Notes under the pieces: model-generated
Databases searched by the model: none
Seen by the model: the letters and a program-made list of their open reading frames with translations, nothing else
Told to the model about the DNA's origin: nothing
Program-made: the position numbers and the translations under genes
NCBI GenBank assembly: GCA_038889235.1
Contig: JAWAHN010000003.1
Coordinates: forward strand, 353,703 to 385,702
Direction: 5' to 3'
Length of the DNA: 32,000 bases
From: Candidatus Jordarchaeales archaeon
Lineage (GTDB): Archaea > Asgardarchaeota > Jordiarchaeia > Jordiarchaeales > Freyrarchaeaceae
In this document: positions 5,966 through 20,749 of the stretch, piece by piece
Layout: each line of letters starts with the position of its first letter
How positions within the stretch are numbered: the first letter of the stretch is position 1

Positions 5966-7558
5966 ATGCCCAGCGGGTTAATCAGCGGTGAAGCTGACTG
6001 CTGCGCAGCAGTCGTCATCTTAGACGGGTGCAGCGTTAAAATGCTCAGAAGAGCGCACACTCCAGTGATAAGCGAGGTCGCCAAAGCAGGCGCCGCCACA
6101 TTTAGGTGCCGCTCCGTCGCCCCGACAGCCACGTACACCGGTCACGCCTCGATAGTCACGGGCACCACACCTGAAGTGCACGGAATTGTCGGAAACTTCT
6201 TCTATGACAAGGCTGAGAGGAGAGTGGTCTGGTTTGACGTCGACGACGTCAACTCATACCTGGAAGCGCCGACGATTTTCGAGATCATTGGAGGCGGGGG
6301 GTGCGTCGGTGAGCCTGTTACGAGGGGGGCAACATTCAAAGTGTCCAAGGAGGATGTTCAGGCTAGGAGTGTGTGGGAGCAGGACTCTTACGCGATTTCC
6401 AAGGCTATAAGAATGGTCGAAGACGAGAGGCCGGCGCTCCTCGTGGTTAACATGCCGGGGGTTGACGGAGTGGGGGAGAGGTATGGTGCCTCGAGCAAGG
6501 AGTCCTCTAGAATACTGGAGGAGGACGATAAGCTGATCGGGAGGTTGCAGGAGGCCTTAGAGGAGTGCTATGAGGACTACCTGCTCGTGGTGACAGCTGA
6601 CCACGGAATGGTTGACGTTAGGGAAAACGTGGATGTTAAGGCTTTATTGGAGGAGTTTAACCCTGTGGTTTGCGCTTCGCACAGGTTTGCCCACATATAC
6701 TTGGAGGACGTGGAAGGAGCTGAGAGACTCCTCAAAAGGGATGGGAGGTTTAGTGTGGTTGTCTCGCGCGACGAAGCTGGGCTGATCTCCCTTAGGAGTG
6801 CACGCGCCGGGGACCTTATGGTCGCGGCTAAGCCGGGCTACGAGCTTAGCGAGCAAAGACTTAAGGGGAGCCATGGGGGTTTAAGCGTGGATGAGGTCTT
6901 CGTCCCACTTGTGGTAAGTAAACCGGAGTACGCGGATATAGTTAGGGAAGGTGCGTCAATAATGGATGTTGCAAGGATCGTCAAAAGGTATCTCGTCGAG
7001 AGGAAGTGCGTGAGGGAGGCGAGGCGGCTGCTTGAAAACGTGGACCCAGCACATGGATGGGAGCACGTGGAGAGGGTTCTCGCCTACTCTACGCGTTTAG
7101 CCTTGAAGTATGGGGGAGACGTTGAAACCGTGAGGCTTGCAAGCATACTTCACGACGTCGGTAAAGGAGTGGAGGGAGCCGACCACGCTGAGAGGAGCGC
7201 CGACGTGGCTGTCTCGCTCCTCCGCGGGGTGCTACCAGGCGACAGGGTCGATAAGATTTCCAGGGTTATCTTGCGCCACCACGCAGATCCAAACGAGCTG
7301 GAGGAGCTGGAAGAAGCTGTCCTCTGGGACTGTGACAAGCTTGACGCGCTGGGCGTCGTAGGCTTCGCAAGGTGCTTGGAAGAGGAGGGGTGGAAAAAGG
7401 GGGGTATAAGTAGCGCGGTGAAGCACTTGGAAAGGGACACTGCAGCGTTCGCCGAGAACATGCACTTTGAGGAGACAAGGCGTCTCGCGAGACTTAAGTT
7501 GAGGTGGGGAAAATGGGTCTTAGAAAGACTGGCCGCCGAAACAGGCTGGCGTTTTTGA
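5966..7558 (+). CDS. Alkaline-phosphatase-superfamily (NPP/phosphonoacetate hydrolase-like) domain fused to an HD phosphohydrolase
   Basis: N-domain: LDGC, PTAT..GHASIVTG, HGIVGN, APTIF, TADHGM, GSHGG. C-domain: AHGWEHVERV, ILHDVGK, DHAERSA, RHH, DCDKLDALG. Confidence 0.85.
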   Translation: MPSGLISGEADCCAAVVILDGCSVKMLRRAHTPVISEVAKAGAATFRCRSVAPTATYTGHASIVTGTTPEVHGIVGNFFYDKAERRVVWFDVDDVNSYLEAPTIFEIIGGGGCVGEPVTRGATFKVSKEDVQARSVWEQDSYAISKAIRMVEDERPALLVVNMPGVDGVGERYGASSKESSRILEEDDKLIGRLQEALEECYEDYLLVVTADHGMVDVRENVDVKALLEEFNPVVCASHRFAHIYLEDVEGAERLLKRDGRFSVVVSRDEAGLISLRSARAGDLMVAAKPGYELSEQRLKGSHGGLSVDEVFVPLVVSKPEYADIVREGASIMDVARIVKRYLVERKCVREARRLLENVDPAHGWEHVERVLAYSTRLALKYGGDVETVRLASILHDVGKGVEGADHAERSADVAVSLLRGVLPGDRVDKISRVILRHHADPNELEELEEAVLWDCDKLDALGVVGFARCLEEEGWKKGGISSAVKHLERDTAAFAENMHFEETRRLARLKLRWGKWVLERLAAETGWRF

Positions 7559-14108: not shown

Positions 14109-14693
14109 TTATTTTTGCTGCCAGAAGTTGCCCTTGTAATGTTGTACCGCTGGGCACCCTAGACACTTGTTCTTCTGGAAGTACTGGCAGTCCTTGCACT
14201 TGGTCTTGGAGCCGCACGGAGGGGACTCTACAGGTTTAAAGTTCATTTTCAGTGGAACTATGAAGCTCCTGACGGCTGATATCACAATGTTGAACTCCAC
14301 ACTTTGAACATTGCTGTTCGGCCTAATGTGTGAGTCGACTATTGTTTCTATAGTTTCAATGTTTTCCCCTACGAATAGCATGCAAACATTGCTCCTCCCC
14401 GACACTAGGAATCCATTTACAAAGTAGGGGCAGTCCTTGAAGCTTTCGAGGAGCTCCAAGGGGTTCTTTGCGGTGATCTCTACTTTCGCCAGGTAGAGGC
14501 CAACCTTCGTTGGGTCCACGCCCACAACCTTCGACAGAACACCTGAGGCTTTAAGCTTCCTCAACCTTACAGCGACTGAGGGCTGAGAAATCCCTATCTG
14601 CTCCGCTATGTACTCCTGAGGGGCGTCGGGGTTTTCACCCAAGATGGTCAAAATAGCCTTATCCTTATTGTCCAGCTTGACGAAGAGAGACAT
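14109..14693 (-). CDS. Lrp/AsnC-family regulator with C-terminal Cys-rich extension
   Basis: LDNKDKAILTIL..P...IAEQIGISQPSVAVRLRKL HTH and a RAM domain (FVNGFLVSGRSN), then PPCGSKTKCKDCQYFQKNKCLGCP. Confidence 0.85.
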   Translation of the reverse strand: MSLFVKLDNKDKAILTILGENPDAPQEYIAEQIGISQPSVAVRLRKLKASGVLSKVVGVDPTKVGLYLAKVEITAKNPLELLESFKDCPYFVNGFLVSGRSNVCMLFVGENIETIETIVDSHIRPNSNVQSVEFNIVISAVRSFIVPLKMNFKPVESPPCGSKTKCKDCQYFQKNKCLGCPAVQHYKGNFWQQK

Positions 14694-14767
14694 GGGGAAC
14701 ACCCTCGGGCGAACAACCGCCACTCCATTAGCCAATACAATCTGAGACTTAATAAGATATAATGGTT

Positions 14768-14985: not shown

Positions 14986-15783
14986 ATGGAGTTTGAAAAA
15001 GTGTTAAAAGAAGTTGACGAGGTCACAATTACTAGAGCGATCATAAAGTCTGCGTCCGAGGATTGGGTTAGGATCGCTGATTCGGATGCCGTGGTAGTCG
15101 GCGCCGGTCCTTCGGGGCTAACGGCGGCCAGGTACATTGCAGAGGCTGGTTTTAGGACCGTGGTGTTTGAGAGGCGGCTGTCGTACGGTGGGGGTATAGG
15201 TGGGGGCGGCATGCTTTGGCACAAGGTGGTGGTTTCCCAGCCCGCTGACGAGATACTCAGGGATATCGGGTGCAGGCTTGAGGAGGCAGCTGAGGGAGTG
15301 TACGTTGTGGATGCAGCTGAGATGCTTGCTCGCCTAGCTACCGCTGCTGTGGATGCTGGAGCCAAGGTGATATTCGGTGTTACAGTTGAGGACCTCATGT
15401 ACACGCCGAACCCGTTAAGGGTGACGGGTGTTGTTGTGCAATGGAGCGCTGTAGGCCTCGCGGGGCTCCACGTGGACCCTGTGGCTGTCAGGGCTAGAGC
15501 GGTGATAGACTGCACAGGACACGACGCTGAAGTTCTGAGGGTCGCCTCAAAGAAGATACCTGAACTCAACTTGGAGATTGTCGGTGAGAGGTCGATGAAC
15601 GCGCCTTACGGTGAGAGGTTCGTGGTTGAAAAGACAGGGGAGGTGTGCCCGGGCCTTTACGTTTCGGGGATGGCTGTCTGCGCCCTATATGGTGGTCCGA
15701 GGATGGGGCCTATTTTCAGCGGAATGCTGCTTTCCGGCAGGAAGGTTGCCAGGGAGGTCGTCAAGCGTCTGAGCGAGTCCTAA
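14986..15783 (+). CDS. thi4: Sulfide-dependent adenosine diphosphate thiazole synthase (Thi4)
   Basis: VVGAGPSGL, GGGIGGGGM, GLHVDP (His at the yeast Cys205 position), DCTGHDA and GPRMGPIFSGMLLSG. Confidence 0.95.
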   Translation: MEFEKVLKEVDEVTITRAIIKSASEDWVRIADSDAVVVGAGPSGLTAARYIAEAGFRTVVFERRLSYGGGIGGGGMLWHKVVVSQPADEILRDIGCRLEEAAEGVYVVDAAEMLARLATAAVDAGAKVIFGVTVEDLMYTPNPLRVTGVVVQWSAVGLAGLHVDPVAVRARAVIDCTGHDAEVLRVASKKIPELNLEIVGERSMNAPYGERFVVEKTGEVCPGLYVSGMAVCALYGGPRMGPIFSGMLLSGRKVAREVVKRLSES

Positions 15784-16534
15784 TGCCCCTCCTCCACTTT
15801 TTCGAAACCACCGCCTTGACGCCACTCCTCTCCTCAAAAACCGCCTCTACCTCCACCAGCTCCGGCTCGACAGCGTTCACTATGTCGCTTAGAATGGTTG
15901 ATACAACCTCCTCGTGGTGCATGCGCCTCTCCTTGAAGGTTTCGAAGTAGTCTTTGAGCGACTCGTACTCTATCAGCCTGCTTGCAGGAGAGTACTTGAT
16001 CTTTATGGCCGCCCTGTCAGGGGTGCCTGTGACGGGGCATATGCATGCAAACCCTTCGTAGGTGAAGGTAGCCTCGTGCTCGCCCTGAAAGTTTGGAATG
16101 GTCCTCAGCCTCACCCGCTTCTTCCCGAGCTCTTCGAGGAGCGAGAGGAGCTCACTTGGTGACCGAGCCATGGCACTCGCTATGTAGAGGGGCCACGGCG
16201 ACCTGACCTTCTCGGGACAGTAAGCTATGACTTGCTTGCCGGCGAGGGCTGAGAGGAGCGCTTCAACCGTCGCCCCGAAGCTCGGCTTAGTGGCTATAAG
16301 GACGATGACGTCAGCCTCCCTGCACCTCTCAATGTCCTTCGTGACTATCTCACGGCACAACTCCGGTTTGTCTCTGAAGTCATCCACGCCACCATAGTCG
16401 GCGCCGGCAAACTGGTCTATGACATTGTATCCAGCAGACCTTATGACGTCTTGGAGCCTGAGGATCTCGTCCTTTCCACCGTACCCGACCGAGCCGCAAA
16501 CTAGAACCTTAAGCCTGCCGCTCAACCAGCTCAC
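15761..16534 (-). CDS. DNPH1/Rcl-like nucleotide N-glycosidase domain fused to a QueF-like T-fold domain
   Basis: N-domain: VCGSVGYGG, KDIERCREADVIV, PSFGATVE. C-domain: IPN, CPVTGTPD, IEYESLKDY, HHEE, FEERSGV. Confidence 0.85.
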   Translation of the reverse strand: MSWLSGRLKVLVCGSVGYGGKDEILRLQDVIRSAGYNVIDQFAGADYGGVDDFRDKPELCREIVTKDIERCREADVIVLIATKPSFGATVEALLSALAGKQVIAYCPEKVRSPWPLYIASAMARSPSELLSLLEELGKKRVRLRTIPNFQGEHEATFTYEGFACICPVTGTPDRAAIKIKYSPASRLIEYESLKDYFETFKERRMHHEEVVSTILSDIVNAVEPELVEVEAVFEERSGVKAVVSKKWRRGIRTRSDA

Positions 16535-16707
16535 CGAGTGGAGGAGAAAACCTCTGGGAGAATTAAATCTGCCGAGCTGGGTACGCTAAGTTTACTGGGC
16601 GCACAATGAACCCTTCAGGGGGTGCCACTCGTAGTTTTAATCGTGACATTTTTAGGGCAGGTTGACAGGGGGATTTCATGTACACCTTATGAGACGGAGG
16701 GTTCAAA

Positions 16708-17472
16708 GTGGAAGTTTGGCGCTATATAGACTTCGACATAGTCGATCCGCCAACCAGCGGAGCTTTAGCTGAAGCAATCTTAATTGCGCGCTCCGAGGGA
16801 AAGTGTCCGGACACCTTCTTCATCTACAGAAGAAAGCCGCCGGCGGTCTCCATAGGATACTTCCAATCGGTGAGCAACACTGTCAACATTGAAGCATGCC
16901 GCAGGCTTGGAGTAGAGGTAAGCAGGAGGATAACGGGTGGCGGCGCCATATACTCGGACGAGAACGGGATAATATACAGCATAGTGGTGAGCGAAAGCAA
17001 CCCAAAGGTTCCAAGGAACATAGCCGAGTCCTACGGCGTACTCTGCAGGGGAATAATCGAGGCACTAAAGCTATTCGGGCTCGAAGCAGTCTTCCAGCCA
17101 GTCAACGACATACTAGTAGAAGGGAGGAAAATAAGTGGAAGCTCACAAACGAGAAGGAAGGGCGTCGTACTTCACCACGGGACACTCCTCGTGAAAGCAG
17201 ACATAGAAACCATGAAGAAAGTGCTCAAAATACCAGAGGAAAAAATGAGCGACAAGCAGGCTAAAAGCCTTGAAGAAAGAGTCACAAGCCTAGAAAGACT
17301 CCTAGGGAGAAAAGTGAGCATAGAAGAAGCCAAAGAAGCAGTGAAAAAAGGATTCGAAAAAGCGTTAAACGTAAAGTTCGAGGAAGGAGAACTTACAGAC
17401 TACGAGAAGAAGCTCGTCGAGCGACTAGTGAAGGAAAAATACTCGCGCGACGAGTGGAACTTCAAGAGGTAG
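16708..17472 (+). CDS. lplA: Lipoate-protein ligase A, catalytic domain only
   Basis: SIGYFQ, RRITGGGAIYSD, PVNDI..GRKISG and HHGTLL. It lacks the C-terminal LplB domain. Confidence 0.92.
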   Translation: MEVWRYIDFDIVDPPTSGALAEAILIARSEGKCPDTFFIYRRKPPAVSIGYFQSVSNTVNIEACRRLGVEVSRRITGGGAIYSDENGIIYSIVVSESNPKVPRNIAESYGVLCRGIIEALKLFGLEAVFQPVNDILVEGRKISGSSQTRRKGVVLHHGTLLVKADIETMKKVLKIPEEKMSDKQAKSLEERVTSLERLLGRKVSIEEAKEAVKKGFEKALNVKFEEGELTDYEKKLVERLVKEKYSRDEWNFKR

Positions 17473-17482
17473 AGAAGTAGAG

Positions 17483-17599
17483 GCGGGGGCGGCCCAGAAA
17501 AATTCGCGTCTGGGTGGGGGGAGGAGGGAGAGGAGGAGGGAGGGGAGGAGGGAAAACCAGCTGGGCCGCCCCCGCTGGTTGGAGGGAGGGGAGGAGGGA
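17483..17599. repeat. GGAG-rich purine tract with a 15-bp inverted repeat and a 19-nt direct repeat
   Basis: GCGGGGGCGGCCCAG (17483-17497) is complementary to CTGGGCCGCCCCCGC (17561-17575). GGAGGGAGGGGAGGAGGGA occurs at 17535 and 17581. Confidence 0.85.
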
Positions 17600-17733
17600 G
17601 GTAAGAGTGAATTTTTATTTTTCGTCAAAAAAACAAAGAAGAAGCTCAATATATAAACTTTACGTATTTACGTTCTTGAAGAAAATATATCTCTTTATTA
17701 ATCTTTATACGTGTATTTTTTTACAAACTTAAA

Positions 17734-18618
17734 TTATAGAGGTGACAAAAAACAGGTGTTCTTTTTACTTTTTTGAGTGGCTTCGTAGATGGCTTCTAGG
17801 AACTCTTCGAGCGTTGGGCTCCACTGAAGGTATACTATCATCTTCCTCGTGCCGTGTAAGATCGTTCCTTGAACGCTTGCCTTGCAGCATCTGACCACGT
17901 AGCAGTCGGCTTCCACACGCGCCTTGCGTGCAAGATGGGCGGGGCACATGTCGACCAGCCTTACTTTGAGCGAGGGGTTTACTTCTCTGAGCGTTGCTAG
18001 GGTTACAGGACACCCTAGGAGCGTGTAGTTTCCTTCTATGCTTGCTATTCTCTCGGCGTCCCTGTCGAGGGTGAGTATGCTGTCTGACTCATCTATCTTG
18101 CACGGCGTTATGAGGTTTCTTTCTCCCCTAACTAGGTCGAGTATGTTGACCACGGTTGCTGAGAACTTTGTGTCGCGTCTCACCAGCCCCTCTGCAACCG
18201 CCTTGTTGGCGTAGTCTACTAGTTTTGGGGGTGGGGGTTCCACCTCCACCAAATGGACATGAATCCCCGGTGGCTCGAAAAAGGCTAGGCCTATGTGTTG
18301 ATACCTTGCCTTGTATGCCACGCAGCGCACCCTTCCAGCGACGAACTTGGAGGTGGCGGATAAGACCTCTCTTTTCGATGAGGGGTCGACGTCTATGCTG
18401 ACGAAGAGTGTTTCGCTCTCACTGCTGGTCTGCTGAACTTCCACTACTTTTCTCAGGAACCCGTCCCCTTCAGACCTCACTCTAAATGAGCGCCACTCGC
18501 CTCCCTCGCCTGCCAACACATACTCTGTCAGATGGAAGATGCGCTTTCCCAAGAGGTCTTCGGCTTCAACCTTACCCTCAACTACCTTGACTTTTTGCGG
18601 GTGAACTACCTTGGGCAT
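17734..18618 (-). CDS. Uncharacterised Cys-containing protein co-transcribed with the LipS2-like radical SAM gene
   Basis: 294-aa ORF with normal composition starting 13 bp after the radical SAM stop. Contains TPCK, LGCP, MCP and RCC motifs. Confidence 0.75.
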   Translation of the reverse strand: MPKVVHPQKVKVVEGKVEAEDLLGKRIFHLTEYVLAGEGGEWRSFRVRSEGDGFLRKVVEVQQTSSESETLFVSIDVDPSSKREVLSATSKFVAGRVRCVAYKARYQHIGLAFFEPPGIHVHLVEVEPPPPKLVDYANKAVAEGLVRRDTKFSATVVNILDLVRGERNLITPCKIDESDSILTLDRDAERIASIEGNYTLLGCPVTLATLREVNPSLKVRLVDMCPAHLARKARVEADCYVVRCCKASVQGTILHGTRKMIVYLQWSPTLEEFLEAIYEATQKSKKNTCFLSPL

Positions 18619-18630
18619 CGCAAACCCACG

Positions 18631-19653
18631 CTACAAGTCTCTTTGTGGTACTATGTCGCAGGCCGTGCATTTGAGACACATTGTTCTGAACTTACGCGTG
18701 TCCAGTCCGGTCTCGTCGAGGACTTCCTTGTAGTTCACCGCGTGCCTTATCATCCTCTCTGCACTTGGTCTTCTAGCCTTGCCTCCAGTGGCCTCAGATA
18801 GTCTCTCAGCCACGGCAGGGTGGATGCTTAGGGGTCTAAGTGACGCCACGACACCCATCCACGCCAGGGCCCTTGCGCCCTCGTCTATAGACTGCTCTGG
18901 CTCGCCTAACCCAACTATTATGTTTGAGCAAACCTTGTTCTCTCCGAAGACCTCGACCGCGTACCTCACCATTTCGAGGTTAACGTCGTAGTCTATGTCT
19001 GGGCAGACCCTTCTAAATGTTTCAGGGTCGTAGCTCTCAACGTTTATCTTTATCTCGTCCGCTCCAGCCTCGTAGAGCATGTCTATATGGCGCCGCTCTG
19101 TTACCAGTGGCTCAACCCCTATTGGGAGGCTGTCCCCGAAGTGCTCCCTTAGCGCCTTAACAACGCTAGCCATGTGCTTCACGCTTTCTTCCGGACTGTC
19201 AGGGACGCCTGTCGTGAGGGCTACCCCTTTGATTTTCTCCCTCACCCTATTGACTATTCTGACGACCACTTCTTCTCTCATCGTGCGTCTGTTGACGTGG
19301 GAGGAGAGAAGGGGAGTTACGCAGAAGCGGCAGTTGAAGCGGCACCTAGAGTCGAGGTTGAGGAACGCTTGCTCTGGGCAGTGGAGGACGCTCTCAACTT
19401 CGATCGCAGGGTAAAGCTCACCTTGGAAGAGTATCCCTTTTCTGGGGATGTACGAGCAAACGTTAGTGGTTGGCGAGATTTGGAGGCGGACGAGTCTGCC
19501 TTCGAAGCCGAAAAAGGCGCAGTCGATCCCAGCGGTTGGGCCGGCCGTTGAGCGGTCTGGCGTGTAGAGCAGCTGTTTCTTGTCCGCCACACGTATCATA
19601 CCATGCTCTAAGAGTTTGGCTTTGAGCAGTGTTGCTTTTGGGACATCCAACAC
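18631..19653 (-). CDS. Radical SAM protein, biotin-synthase-related (LipS2-like)
   Basis: CRFNCRFC SAM-cluster motif and a C-terminal TMCLKCTACD Cys cluster. Lies next to lplA and a LipS1 homolog. Confidence 0.75.
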   Translation of the reverse strand: MLDVPKATLLKAKLLEHGMIRVADKKQLLYTPDRSTAGPTAGIDCAFFGFEGRLVRLQISPTTNVCSYIPRKGILFQGELYPAIEVESVLHCPEQAFLNLDSRCRFNCRFCVTPLLSSHVNRRTMREEVVVRIVNRVREKIKGVALTTGVPDSPEESVKHMASVVKALREHFGDSLPIGVEPLVTERRHIDMLYEAGADEIKINVESYDPETFRRVCPDIDYDVNLEMVRYAVEVFGENKVCSNIIVGLGEPEQSIDEGARALAWMGVVASLRPLSIHPAVAERLSEATGGKARRPSAERMIRHAVNYKEVLDETGLDTRKFRTMCLKCTACDIVPQRDL

Positions 19654-19717
19654 TTTACACCTTTCTCGTCAAAGTTTTATTCTTAGGGAGACTTGTTTAA
19701 GTGACCTGCGTGAACGG

Positions 19718-20749
19718 GTGAAGCCCTTGAAGAAAAACCTTGCGGAGATACTCGAGAAAGCCATCCAGAAGCCGTTGACGGCCGGTGAAGCTGAGCGGCT
19801 CCTAGCGGAGCGAGGGCACATAGACGATCTCCTAAGGGTGGCGAGGGAGGTGACTGAGGAGCAGGGGGGGAGAGTGTTAAAAGTTTACGCTCCATCCAAG
19901 CGTTTTCCGCCAATATCGGTGACGGGTGGGAGGTGCGAGCTTAACTGTGCACATTGCGGTGGACACTACCTTTCCCACATGATCCCAGCCGAGACGCCTG
20001 AGAGACTTTACGAGGTTTGCGTCGGCCTTTACGAGAAGGGGGCTGTGGGCTGCCTTATAAGTGGGGGGAGCACTAGTGGAGGGTACGTTCCTCTTGGACC
20101 CTTTATCGGGGCGATTAGGAGAGTTAAGGCTGAAACGGGCTTGATTTTGAACGTCCACACGGGGCTTGTGGACGACGTGCTTGCAAGGCAGCTGGCTGAG
20201 GCTGGGGTGGATGTGGTTTCTCTGGACGTTGTAGGTGACACTGAGACTGTGAGGGCGGTTTACGGGCTTGACAGGAGGGCTGAAGACTACTTTGAAGCTT
20301 TGCACAGGCATGTTAAGGCAGGTTTAAAGCACGTTGTACCCCACATATGCGTCGGGCTGCACTATGGGGAGTTGAGAGGGGAGTTAAAGGCGCTTGAGGC
20401 TGTTAAGTCTGTGAAGCCGAAGAAGCTTGTGTTCATAGTTCTCACTCCGACTAAGGGGACCCGGATGGAGGGTGTCGCGCCTCCGAGCCCGCTGGACGTG
20501 GTGAAGGTCATGGCTGTTGCGAGGCTCGTGATGAAGGACACGAAGATAATTTTGGGGTGCATGAGGCCGGCTGGAAGGGTGAGGGAGAAGCTCGACGTGC
20601 TCGCGCTGGACGTCGTAGACGGAATTGTTCTGCCTGTGAGGGAGGCGGTTAGGGAGGCCGAGAGAAGGGGGTTCGCCGTTGAGAAGCTTGAGTCTTGTTG
20701 CGCTATTCCACAAGAGCTTGAGGTTGCGGCCAGCCGGAAGGGCTACTAG
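19718..20749 (+). CDS. lipS1: Radical SAM lipoyl synthase subunit LipS1-like
   Basis: CELNCAHC, plus the GCMR and C-terminal CC motifs characteristic of archaeal LipS1. Start refined to GTG 19718. Confidence 0.75.
   Translation: MKPLKKNLAEILEKAIQKPLTAGEAERLLAERGHIDDLLRVAREVTEEQGGRVLKVYAPSKRFPPISVTGGRCELNCAHCGGHYLSHMIPAETPERLYEVCVGLYEKGAVGCLISGGSTSGGYVPLGPFIGAIRRVKAETGLILNVHTGLVDDVLARQLAEAGVDVVSLDVVGDTETVRAVYGLDRRAEDYFEALHRHVKAGLKHVVPHICVGLHYGELRGELKALEAVKSVKPKKLVFIVLTPTKGTRMEGVAPPSPLDVVKVMAVARLVMKDTKIILGCMRPAGRVREKLDVLALDVVDGIVLPVREAVREAERRGFAVEKLESCCAIPQELEVAASRKGY

Follow-up and report, generated by a model that had tools for sequence, protein, structure and literature searches.

What use does an archaeon without a queuosine pathway have for a QueF-type domain, and why should that domain be joined to what looks like a nucleotide-cleaving enzyme? 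The question is raised by a single gene in a 32,000-nucleotide stretch of DNA from Candidatus Jordarchaeales archaeon (assembly GCA_038889235.1, contig JAWAHN010000003.1, positions 353,703 to 385,702; this whole stretch is called the window below). Nearly all archaeal tRNA contains archaeosine. To our knowledge it has not been established what becomes of archaeosine nucleotides once the tRNA decays, and we know of no described archaeal counterpart of the eukaryotic queuosine-monophosphate glycosylase. The two folds of the protein, the conservation of its residues, its gene linkage and its taxonomic range are established here. The reading that we favour, tentatively and as something short of probable, is that the fusion is a bifunctional enzyme for the recycling or sanitation of 7-deazaguanine nucleotides, acting from the ribonucleotide down to the base. 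The fusion is a concrete, testable candidate for archaeal 7-deazaguanine nucleotide recovery.

The two domains and their conserved residues

A prediction made earlier from the sequence of the window (the original prediction) had described one open reading frame (ORF) that joins a DNPH1/Rcl-like N-glycosidase to a QueF-like T-fold. The ORF was given exactly, and all of the motifs then quoted are present (CGSVGYGG, D67/D75, PSFGATVE, CICPVTGTPD, IEYESLKDY, HHE, and ERSG). The features of the gene are as follows, NDT standing for nucleoside 2'-deoxyribosyltransferase and preQ0 for 7-cyano-7-deazaguanine:

15761..16534, minus strand: fusion ORF, one uninterrupted frame of 257 aa, counted from a GTG, with its stop
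16112..16534, minus strand: N-terminal domain, residues 1-141, with a DNPH1/NDT-superfamily flavodoxin-like fold
16477..16506, minus strand: KVLVCGSVGY, residues 10-19, strand 1 and the Gly-rich phosphate loop (CGSVGYGG is residues 13-20, its last glycine, G20, lying outside this range)
16262..16285, minus strand: PSFGATVE, residues 84-91, from a HMMER alignment to rat Rcl
15764..16111, minus strand: linker and unimodular QueF-type T-fold, residues 142-257, from PF14489, TIGR03139, 4f8b and Foldseek
16016..16045, minus strand: CICPVTGTPD, residues 164-173, in which C166 is Cys55, C164 the "position 53" Cys, and D173 Asp62
15947..15970, minus strand: EYESLKDY, residues 189-196 (IEYESLKDY, residues 188-196), a variant QueF motif
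15911..15919, minus strand: HHE, residues 206-208, in which H207/E208 are His96/Glu97 (the preQ0 anchor) and H206 replaces Phe95

That the C-terminal half is a QueF domain is beyond doubt. It matches Pfam PF14489 with an E-value of 2.1e-19, and it scores 88.4 bits against the NCBIfam preQ1 synthase equivalog TIGR03139, 1.5 bits over the cut-off of 86.9 and on model positions 17-111 only. As had been predicted, this half is nearer to bacterial QueF than to crenarchaeal QueF-L. A profile of 32 fusion-family sequences finds Bacillus subtilis QueF (4f8b) at E 9.5e-20 as against 5.4e-8 for QueF-L (5jyx), and Foldseek identities are 28% and 22%, respectively. The AlphaFold2 (AF2) model of the full-length protein is confident (predicted local distance difference test score, pLDDT, 90; predicted template-modelling score, pTM, 0.83). 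Foldseek gives a root-mean-square deviation (rmsd) of 1.1-2.0 Å to B. subtilis QueF, and target-normalised template-modelling (TM) scores of 0.84-0.91 to QueF-L. A word-indexed search with residues 143-257 alone found no near stand-alone relative of the QueF half.

The residues that handle preQ0 are kept throughout the family. The thioimide-forming Cys55 of QueF corresponds to C166, and Asp62 to D173 (for the roles of these residues see PMC5372742 and PMC13740343), while C164 matches the "back-door" cysteine of position 53 described for Aquifex-type QueF (PMC5372742). Each of these three is invariant (32/32), as are E189, the equivalent of B. subtilis Glu78, and H207 and E208. All four residues checked as catalytic markers of QueF are thus in place (C166, D173, E208, and E189 for Cys55, Asp62, Glu97, and Glu78). 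In B. subtilis QueF, Glu78 binds the N9-H of the free base (PMC13740343, table 2); since Glu189 is kept, the T-fold is expected to bind the base in its free form, and neither a nucleotide nor a tRNA. The QueF motif itself, E(S/L)K(S/A)hK(L/Y)(Y/F/W), carries NADPH-binding residues (PMC5372742), and its position-3 lysine, Lys96 in Vibrio cholerae QueF, binds the NADPH 2'-phosphate (PMC13740343). Here the motif deviates at positions 2, 3, and 7 in all 32 sequences. Y190 replaces the Ser/Leu of position 2, and E191 stands in place of the lysine of position 3, a glutamate in 32/32 family members. At the same position the 47 nearest bacterial QueFs found by genome scan have lysine (46) or arginine (1). 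Position 6, residue 194, is lysine in all 47 of these and K9/D19/other in the fusion family, and at residues 235-238 ERSG brings RSG in place of RGG. Because of the fixed charge reversal at position 3, canonical use of NADPH by the T-fold looks unlikely, and NADH or another donor would be compatible with the motif. The QueF motif is altered, as the original prediction had noted, in all 32 sequences.

The N-terminal domain shows weak similarity by sequence and is clearly assigned by its modelled fold. PF05014 (Nuc_deoxyrib_tr) is matched with an E-value of 0.05 and 14.2 bits, for a gathering threshold of 28.8; some fusion relatives carry a precomputed PF05014 match, and stand-alone relatives of the domain score 26.7-33.2 bits. 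In profile searches rat Rcl is matched at E 0.002-0.005. The AF2 model of residues 1-141 (pLDDT 92) aligns by Foldseek to NDT, DNPH1 and BcmB structures with TM 0.53-0.78 and a probability of 1.00 (TM 0.76 to the NDT 7o62). Among the 50 best PDB matches listed, the 45 considered by title are all of this kind: 30 nucleoside 2'-deoxyribosyltransferases, 13 DNPH1/Rcl and two of the cytidine monophosphate (CMP) N-glycosidase BcmB. Against Swiss-Prot models, putative DNPH1 proteins rank at the top. The model thus places the domain in the NDT/DNPH1 superfamily, and both domain assignments of the original prediction hold.

Its active site can be read residue by residue. Human DNPH1 binds the 5'-phosphate with its Gly-rich loop, Ser98, the amide of Gly100 and, from the partner subunit, Ser128, and its conserved catalytic set is Tyr24, Asp80, and Glu104, with the tyrosine hydrogen-bonded to the nucleophile (PMC10483697). 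D67 and D75 are both present in the N-domain, and in the HMMER alignment D67 pairs with rat Asp69, the general acid Asp80 of the human enzyme. S85 is the phosphate serine (rat Ser87, human Ser98), G87 provides the backbone phosphate contact, and E91 is the nucleophile (rat Glu93, human Glu104). These four are invariant (32/32), and so are S112 and W114. The catalytic residues are retained in both halves, as read in the original prediction. S112 is positioned behind strand 4, where it would be expected, and the rat Rcl profile alignment ends before reaching it. Nucleoside-specific NDTs have Asp/Asn (Asp79/Asn113, binding O5') where DNPH1 has two serines (PMC7308715). As the 5' site here has serine and not Asp/Asn, the domain appears suited to nucleoside 5'-monophosphates, and from its residues and modelled fold we read it as a nucleoside 5'-monophosphate N-glycosidase.

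One catalytic residue is exchanged. L11 stands at the place of the catalytic-site tyrosine (rat Tyr13, human Tyr24), and the family has I12/L8/F7/M4/V1 there, with no tyrosine in 32 sequences; more distant stand-alone relatives of the domain do carry it. According to PMC4081090 and PMC7308715, a phenylalanine at this position in MilB and BcmB goes with ribonucleotide substrates, and the MilB F17Y exchange flips the preference from CMP to deoxycytidine monophosphate (dCMP) (PMC7308715; PMC4081090 citing Sikowitz 2013). By analogy with MilB and BcmB, the replacement of the tyrosine by Ile/Leu/Phe/Met/Val suggests that the substrate is a ribonucleotide and not a deoxynucleotide.

Carriers, partner genes and locus

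The fusion is real and not an assembly artefact, the possibility against which the original prediction had asked for a check: it occurs at full length in about 54 clusters (90% identity) from independent NCBI, JGI, ENA, and Logan assemblies, at 44-73% identity. It is carried by 32 species-representative genomes, a matching ESM Atlas cluster has 70 archaeal members, and the DNA of the gene is present in hot-spring metagenomes from two studies. Mean column identity across both halves is 62%. The nearest relatives of the window protein, 68-73% identical, are in metagenome-assembled genomes (MAGs) of Jordarchaeia, and other carriers are Archaeoglobaceae, Mnemosynella and further archaeal MAGs. Among 301 sampled genomes of the host phylum, the full-length protein is found only in the host's own family (5/5, host included), and in none of six near-complete genomes of the sister family of the same order. 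No cultured Archaeoglobus is among the best 80 loci. When the 32 proteins are placed in a tree, those of the Jordarchaeia type group together in a single clade with one more MAG (support 100/99), and under midpoint rooting this clade falls among Archaeoglobi-type sequences. Such a tree, built with no outgroup, fits one origin and a transfer between thermophiles in either direction. Databases call the members preQ(1) synthase, 7-cyano-7-deazaguanine reductase, nucleoside 2-deoxyribosyltransferase or hypothetical protein.

The host is equipped for archaeosine. Its genome (2.14 Mb in 8 contigs, 95% complete) encodes QueC, QueD, arcTGT, and ArcS, and a single QueF-family gene. At that completeness it has no QueA, no bacterial TGT, no third TGT-family gene, and no DpdA. 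Lacking QueA and a third TGT-family gene, the host has no queuosine pathway and no DpdA-type DNA modification, and preQ1 would have no known user there as neither QueA nor bacterial TGT is present. preQ0 and the nucleotides of the archaeosine base (G+) must arise in this host. Canonical arcTGT uses preQ0. It does not accept the G+ base (PMC5485725), and when free this base reportedly turns into preQ0 by spontaneous loss of ammonia (PMC5699537). ArcS (DUF5591) is found in the host and in all five other carriers tested, and QueC in 22 of the 32 genomes with the fusion (23 of 33 searched). The ten genomes with no full-length QueC (G301, G302, G305, G309, G313, G322, G325, G326, G329, and G331) are MAGs whose completeness is not established; they include both Mnemosynella genomes, and G301, G302, and G305 have ArcS. 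Absence of QueC may reflect either MAG incompleteness or genuine dependence on salvaged preQ0. The fusion is a substitute neither for de novo preQ0 synthesis nor for ArcS.

In the Archaeoglobaceae the fusion has partners. An HD-domain gene lies directly downstream, within about 50 bases or overlapping, in 14 of the 32 species loci, and in 12 of these 14 it is followed by a half-size major facilitator superfamily (MFS) gene of 175-183 aa with about six helices (for example 8753-9280 in L012 and 5316-5867 in L020). Too short for a normal MFS carrier, this protein presumably acts as a homodimer. No correlation is seen between the HD-MFS operon and loss of QueC, 10 of the 12 HD-MFS loci being in QueC-positive genomes, with absences clouded by MAG incompleteness. 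The Archaeoglobus HD partner matches B. subtilis YpgQ (5dqv, E 1.3e-30) and Escherichia coli YedJ (3gw7, E 5.3e-23). YpgQ is a Mn-dependent pyrophosphohydrolase of (deoxy)nucleoside triphosphates which prefers dGTP and dATP (PMC8177086), and its relative PenF is a nucleoside 5'-monophosphatase of a nucleoside antibiotic pathway (PMC11592144). The simplest reading of this linkage would be a chain of three enzymes, each for one part of the same nucleotide: phosphate, glycosidic bond, or base. A stronger argument than the linkage count is a 406-aa protein in which NDT-like, QueF, and HD domains form a single chain. In the host genome the best HD homologue (45% identity) is unlinked, 270 kb away on the same contig. 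A 530-aa fusion of PF01663 (type I phosphodiesterase/nucleotide pyrophosphatase, E 2.7e-41) and an HD domain is encoded at 5966-7558 on the plus strand of the window; this HD domain is 35% identical to the Archaeoglobus partner, and this nucleotide-catabolic fusion lies 8 kb from the gene studied here.

Other neighbours vary. In Mnemosynella (L010, L039, and L045) the fusion overlaps the start of a downstream 308-aa radical SAM gene, a weak match to AmmeMemoRadiSam/NrdG-type activase models. A CTP_transf_like gene upstream in three loci was considered as a partner and rejected, being the ordinary archaeal phosphopantetheine adenylyltransferase (CoaD). In Jordarchaeia the neighbours are LplA and Thi4 genes, of lipoate and thiamine metabolism, in the window and in three other genomes, and they carry no information about the fusion gene. 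Within the window the gene is monocistronic, divergent from the lipoate-protein ligase (LplA) gene, and it shares 23 bp at its 3' end with the convergent Thi4 gene. Its true start is probably the TTG at codon 4 (position 16525), giving a 254-aa product, because a GGTGA Shine-Dalgarno-like box stands 5 nt upstream of this TTG and a database copy is 254 aa long. Both promoters presumably lie in the intergenic spacer, and an A/T-rich box, TTTAATT, is found about 35 nt upstream of the fusion gene start:

16535..16707: divergent intergenic region of 173 bp shared with the LplA gene

Beyond this spacer, 16708-20749 is a lipoate cluster with an LplA catalytic domain, a DUF7714/XcbA-like protein and two radical SAM genes, and this block also flanks the fusion gene in other Jordarchaeia. 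One radical SAM gene (18631-19653) matches the NCBIfam LipS2 lipoyl synthase model with 61.8 bits for a cut-off of 270, and the other has Radical_SAM and BATS domains only. On the Thi4 side, an AsnC/MarR-type winged-helix regulator with a Cys-rich C-terminal tail (CxxC...CxxC) is encoded at 14109-14735 on the minus strand, between a ThiS-like gene and Thi4, an arrangement repeated in another Jordarchaeia genome.

A candidate recovery route and its rivals

The favoured reading, in which a 7-deazaguanine ribonucleotide is taken down to its base, can be laid out as a series of steps by comparison with characterised enzymes. The N-domain would work like DNPH1 or MilB, Glu91 attacking C1' of a nucleoside 5'-monophosphate whose phosphate would be bound by the Gly-rich loop, by Ser85 and, probably, by Ser112 from the partner subunit. 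The products would be a free base and ribose 5-phosphate. The substrate would be a 7-deazaguanine ribonucleotide, left behind by decaying RNA or tRNA or made when preQ0 is phosphoribosylated by mistake, and the base set free would be preQ0, or the G+ base that decays to it. The T-fold would then bind the base through Glu189, His207, and Glu208, and Cys166, aided by Asp173, would trap it as a thioimide. With an invariant glutamate in its motif, this thioimide is probably not reduced canonically with NADPH; instead preQ0 might be released for arcTGT, an exchange with ammonia might take place, or another donor might carry out the reduction. In the Archaeoglobaceae, the YpgQ-type HD enzyme would feed the N-domain by turning tri- and diphosphates into monophosphates, and the half-size MFS protein would carry the base through the membrane. 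A bolder form of this proposal strikes us as rather doubtful: that a MilB-like glycosidase hands its base directly to an NADPH-free T-fold for non-redox thioimide chemistry, be it capture and hand-over of preQ0 or an exchange of amidine and nitrile. This would be the first dedicated archaeal recovery of 7-deazaguanine bases from the ribonucleotides of tRNA turnover, and with the HD and MFS proteins of Archaeoglobaceae it would make a four-part module.

Several observations weigh against the favoured reading. The purpose of the T-fold step is left unexplained, as preQ0 needs no conversion and the G+ base reportedly turns into preQ0 spontaneously; the T-fold might accelerate or protect recovery rather than enable it, for example by capturing a reactive or toxic nitrile at high temperature. 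Of the two-step salvage module put forward in the original prediction, the direction from nucleotide to base has gained ground (through the non-Tyr residue, the retained Glu189, and the HD partner), whereas the need for an enzymatic amidine-to-nitrile conversion is much reduced by the reported spontaneous decay of the G+ base (PMC5699537). Genes for 7-deazaguanines (queC/D/E, arcTGT, and arcS) never adjoin the fusion in any examined locus. Nor is salvage obligatory, because the host and most carriers make preQ0. The HD linkage is confined to related Archaeoglobaceae and may partly be inherited synteny, so that a count of 14/32 overstates its independent support. In rat DNPH1, replacing the catalytic-site tyrosine by phenylalanine lowers kcat/KM 280-fold (PMC10483697), and the preQ1 synthase model TIGR03139 is passed, if only just. 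Stand-alone relatives of the N-domain without QueF, about 130 aa long and 32-43% identical, share its DFR, PSxG..E, and PW signatures; the pocket is therefore not demonstrably specific for 7-deazaguanine, and it is the fusion itself that makes the case for such a substrate. In another archaeon a divergent relative (L054, 4554-5321, plus strand; 255 aa, 47% identity) has an intact EYESL/HHE QueF half and an N-domain with neither the PSxG..E site nor the Asp, which suggests that the T-fold can matter alone. The sanitising alternative entertained in the original prediction, an enzyme that keeps 7-deazaguanine nucleotides out of DNA, loses favour because the tyrosine is replaced and DpdA is absent.

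Two contexts of these relatives may be recorded here. The L054 gene begins 18 bp after a same-strand RNase HII gene, and RNase HII is also found near the Archaeoglobus locus L012. In L015 (5307-6129), a 132-aa stand-alone N-domain relative follows a dual-specificity (DSPc) phosphatase gene by 4 bp, beside an ADP-ribosylglycohydrolase and a tRNA-splicing endonuclease and with no QueF there; phosphatase and N-domain relative may be a separate nucleotide- or ADP-ribose-related pair. The contexts of other stand-alone relatives are uninformative or on short contigs.

The same data can be read in other ways. The protein may be what its database name implies, a preQ1 synthase reducing the nitrile, with the Rossmann-like N-domain serving as an accessory, for example a nucleotide site for NAD(P)H or another hydride donor, or a device for oligomerisation or regulation. 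B. subtilis QueF is indeed its closest solved relative, TIGR03139 is above cut-off, no residue for preQ0 binding or thioimide formation has been lost, a Gly-rich loop behind strand 1 together with the acidic D40 behind strand 2 recalls the layout of a dinucleotide-binding site, and in L054 the QueF half outlives a degenerate N-domain. We nevertheless consider this unlikely. The lysine for the NADPH 2'-phosphate is a glutamate in 32/32 sequences and the second motif lysine is mostly an aspartate; preQ1 would find no known use in a host without QueA, bacterial TGT or DpdA, where canonical arcTGT uses preQ0; and the N-domain retains Asp, Ser, and Glu, the complete glycosidase set, and has autonomous 130-aa relatives unattached to any oxidoreductase. 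The name "preQ1 synthase" is for these reasons doubtful. The altered NADPH motif, the archaeal hosts and the TM scores of 0.84-0.91 would also suit an archaeosine synthase acting on tRNA like crenarchaeal QueF-L, the N-domain being a non-catalytic RNA- or nucleotide-binding appendage. This is the explanation to which we give the least credence, since QueF-L is distributed inversely with ArcS (PMC5485725) and both the host and all five other carriers tested have ArcS, while the sequence is much nearer to QueF and Glu189, the ligand of a free base's N9-H, is invariant.

The remaining two explanations concern the N-domain. If loss of the tyrosine were to prolong the life of the ribosyl-enzyme intermediate, transfer would be favoured over hydrolysis, and rat DNPH1 is able to transfer to methanol (PMC10483697). 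The fusion could then belong to an anabolic module in which the N-domain moves ribose 5-phosphate from a common nucleoside monophosphate onto a base delivered by the QueF half, the HD protein acts as a 5'-nucleotidase like the YpgQ-like nucleoside 5'-monophosphatase PenF (PMC11592144), and the MFS protein exports the nucleoside, all in a gene order resembling that of a make-and-export operon. Yet (d)NMP glycosidases are not reported to transglycosylate (PMC7308715), in Jordarchaeia and many Archaeoglobi neither HD nor MFS accompanies the fusion, and there its neighbours are housekeeping genes (CoaD, LplA, and Thi4), and the loci hold no other tailoring genes nearby; the module seems quite unlikely to us. 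It is very unlikely, finally, that the two halves have unrelated jobs, the N-domain being a general purine ribonucleotide N-glycosidase and the fusion uninformative about any shared substrate. Stand-alone N-domain relatives in unrelated contexts and the lack of a 7-deazaguanine gene neighbourhood speak for it, but the fusion has been kept, with both halves strongly constrained, across lineages that are about 50% identical, the full-length model is confident (pTM 0.83), and in one lineage a third nucleotide enzyme is on the same polypeptide.

Relation to known systems

Full-text literature searches (QueF with deoxyribosyltransferase, Archaeoglobus, PF05014, Asgard, and archaeosine salvage) returned no description of the fusion, in line with the original prediction, which knew of none. 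Its narrow range in uncultured thermophiles limits its impact and accounts for its having gone unnoticed. Both domains come from known superfamilies, and to judge from its residues each lacks a hallmark of the characterised family nearest to it: the QueF motif in one case, the DNPH1 tyrosine in the other. Because the NADPH motif and the deoxy-specific tyrosine are each lost, the names "preQ(1) synthase" and "nucleoside 2-deoxyribosyltransferase" probably both mislead. The protein may offer a third functional state of the QueF fold, besides NADPH reductase and tRNA amidinotransferase.

The closest likeness is to unimodular QueF of the YkvM type, the NADPH-dependent preQ0 reductase of B. subtilis (4f8b). 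The T-folds superpose within the 1.1-2.0 Å given above, the equivalents of Cys55, Asp62, Glu78, His96, and Glu97 are invariant in the fusion, and a position-53 cysteine is present as in Aquifex-type enzymes (PMC5372742). The fusion differs in its motif, E-Y-E-S-L-(K/D)-x-Y in place of E-(S/L)-K-S-h-K-L-Y, in the changes of Phe95 to His and of RGG to RSG, and in a glycosidase-like domain of 140 aa which replaces the usual N-terminal extension of QueF; its hosts, unlike those of QueF, are archaea without a queuosine pathway. With QueF-L, the ammonia-dependent archaeosine synthase of Pyrobaculum calidifontis (5jyx) which acts on preQ0-tRNA, it shares an archaeal T-fold and, as far as its residues indicate, Cys/Asp thioimide chemistry, and neither protein has an intact NADPH motif. 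However QueF-L is a single domain of 105 aa that replaces ArcS, whereas the fusion co-occurs with ArcS.

The N-domain has in common with DNPH1/Rcl and MilB/BcmB the fold, the nucleophile Glu, the Asp, the phosphate Ser, and the Gly-rich loop, and with the ribo-specific MilB and BcmB a non-Tyr residue beside the nucleophile. It departs from DNPH1 in the missing tyrosine, in a phosphate loop one residue longer, in DQ, DFR, and SPW signatures of its own that are invariant, and in the attached T-fold. The N-ribosyltransferase of Archaeoglobus veneficus was tried as a counterpart and rejected, as it is a nucleoside-type NDT with Asp79/Asn113 at O5' (PMC7308715). The HD phosphohydrolases YpgQ, YedJ, and PenF are kin of the partner gene, which is fused in one lineage and unlinked in the genome of the window. 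In the logic proposed here, the nearest parallel is eukaryotic queuosine salvage, in which a 7-deazaguanine base is likewise freed from a nucleotide of tRNA turnover. There the enzyme is Qng1, and its substrate is queuosine 5'-monophosphate. Qng1 belongs to the DUF2419 family (mentioned in PMC5699537) and its fold is unrelated to those of the fusion, so that the likeness is one of function only.

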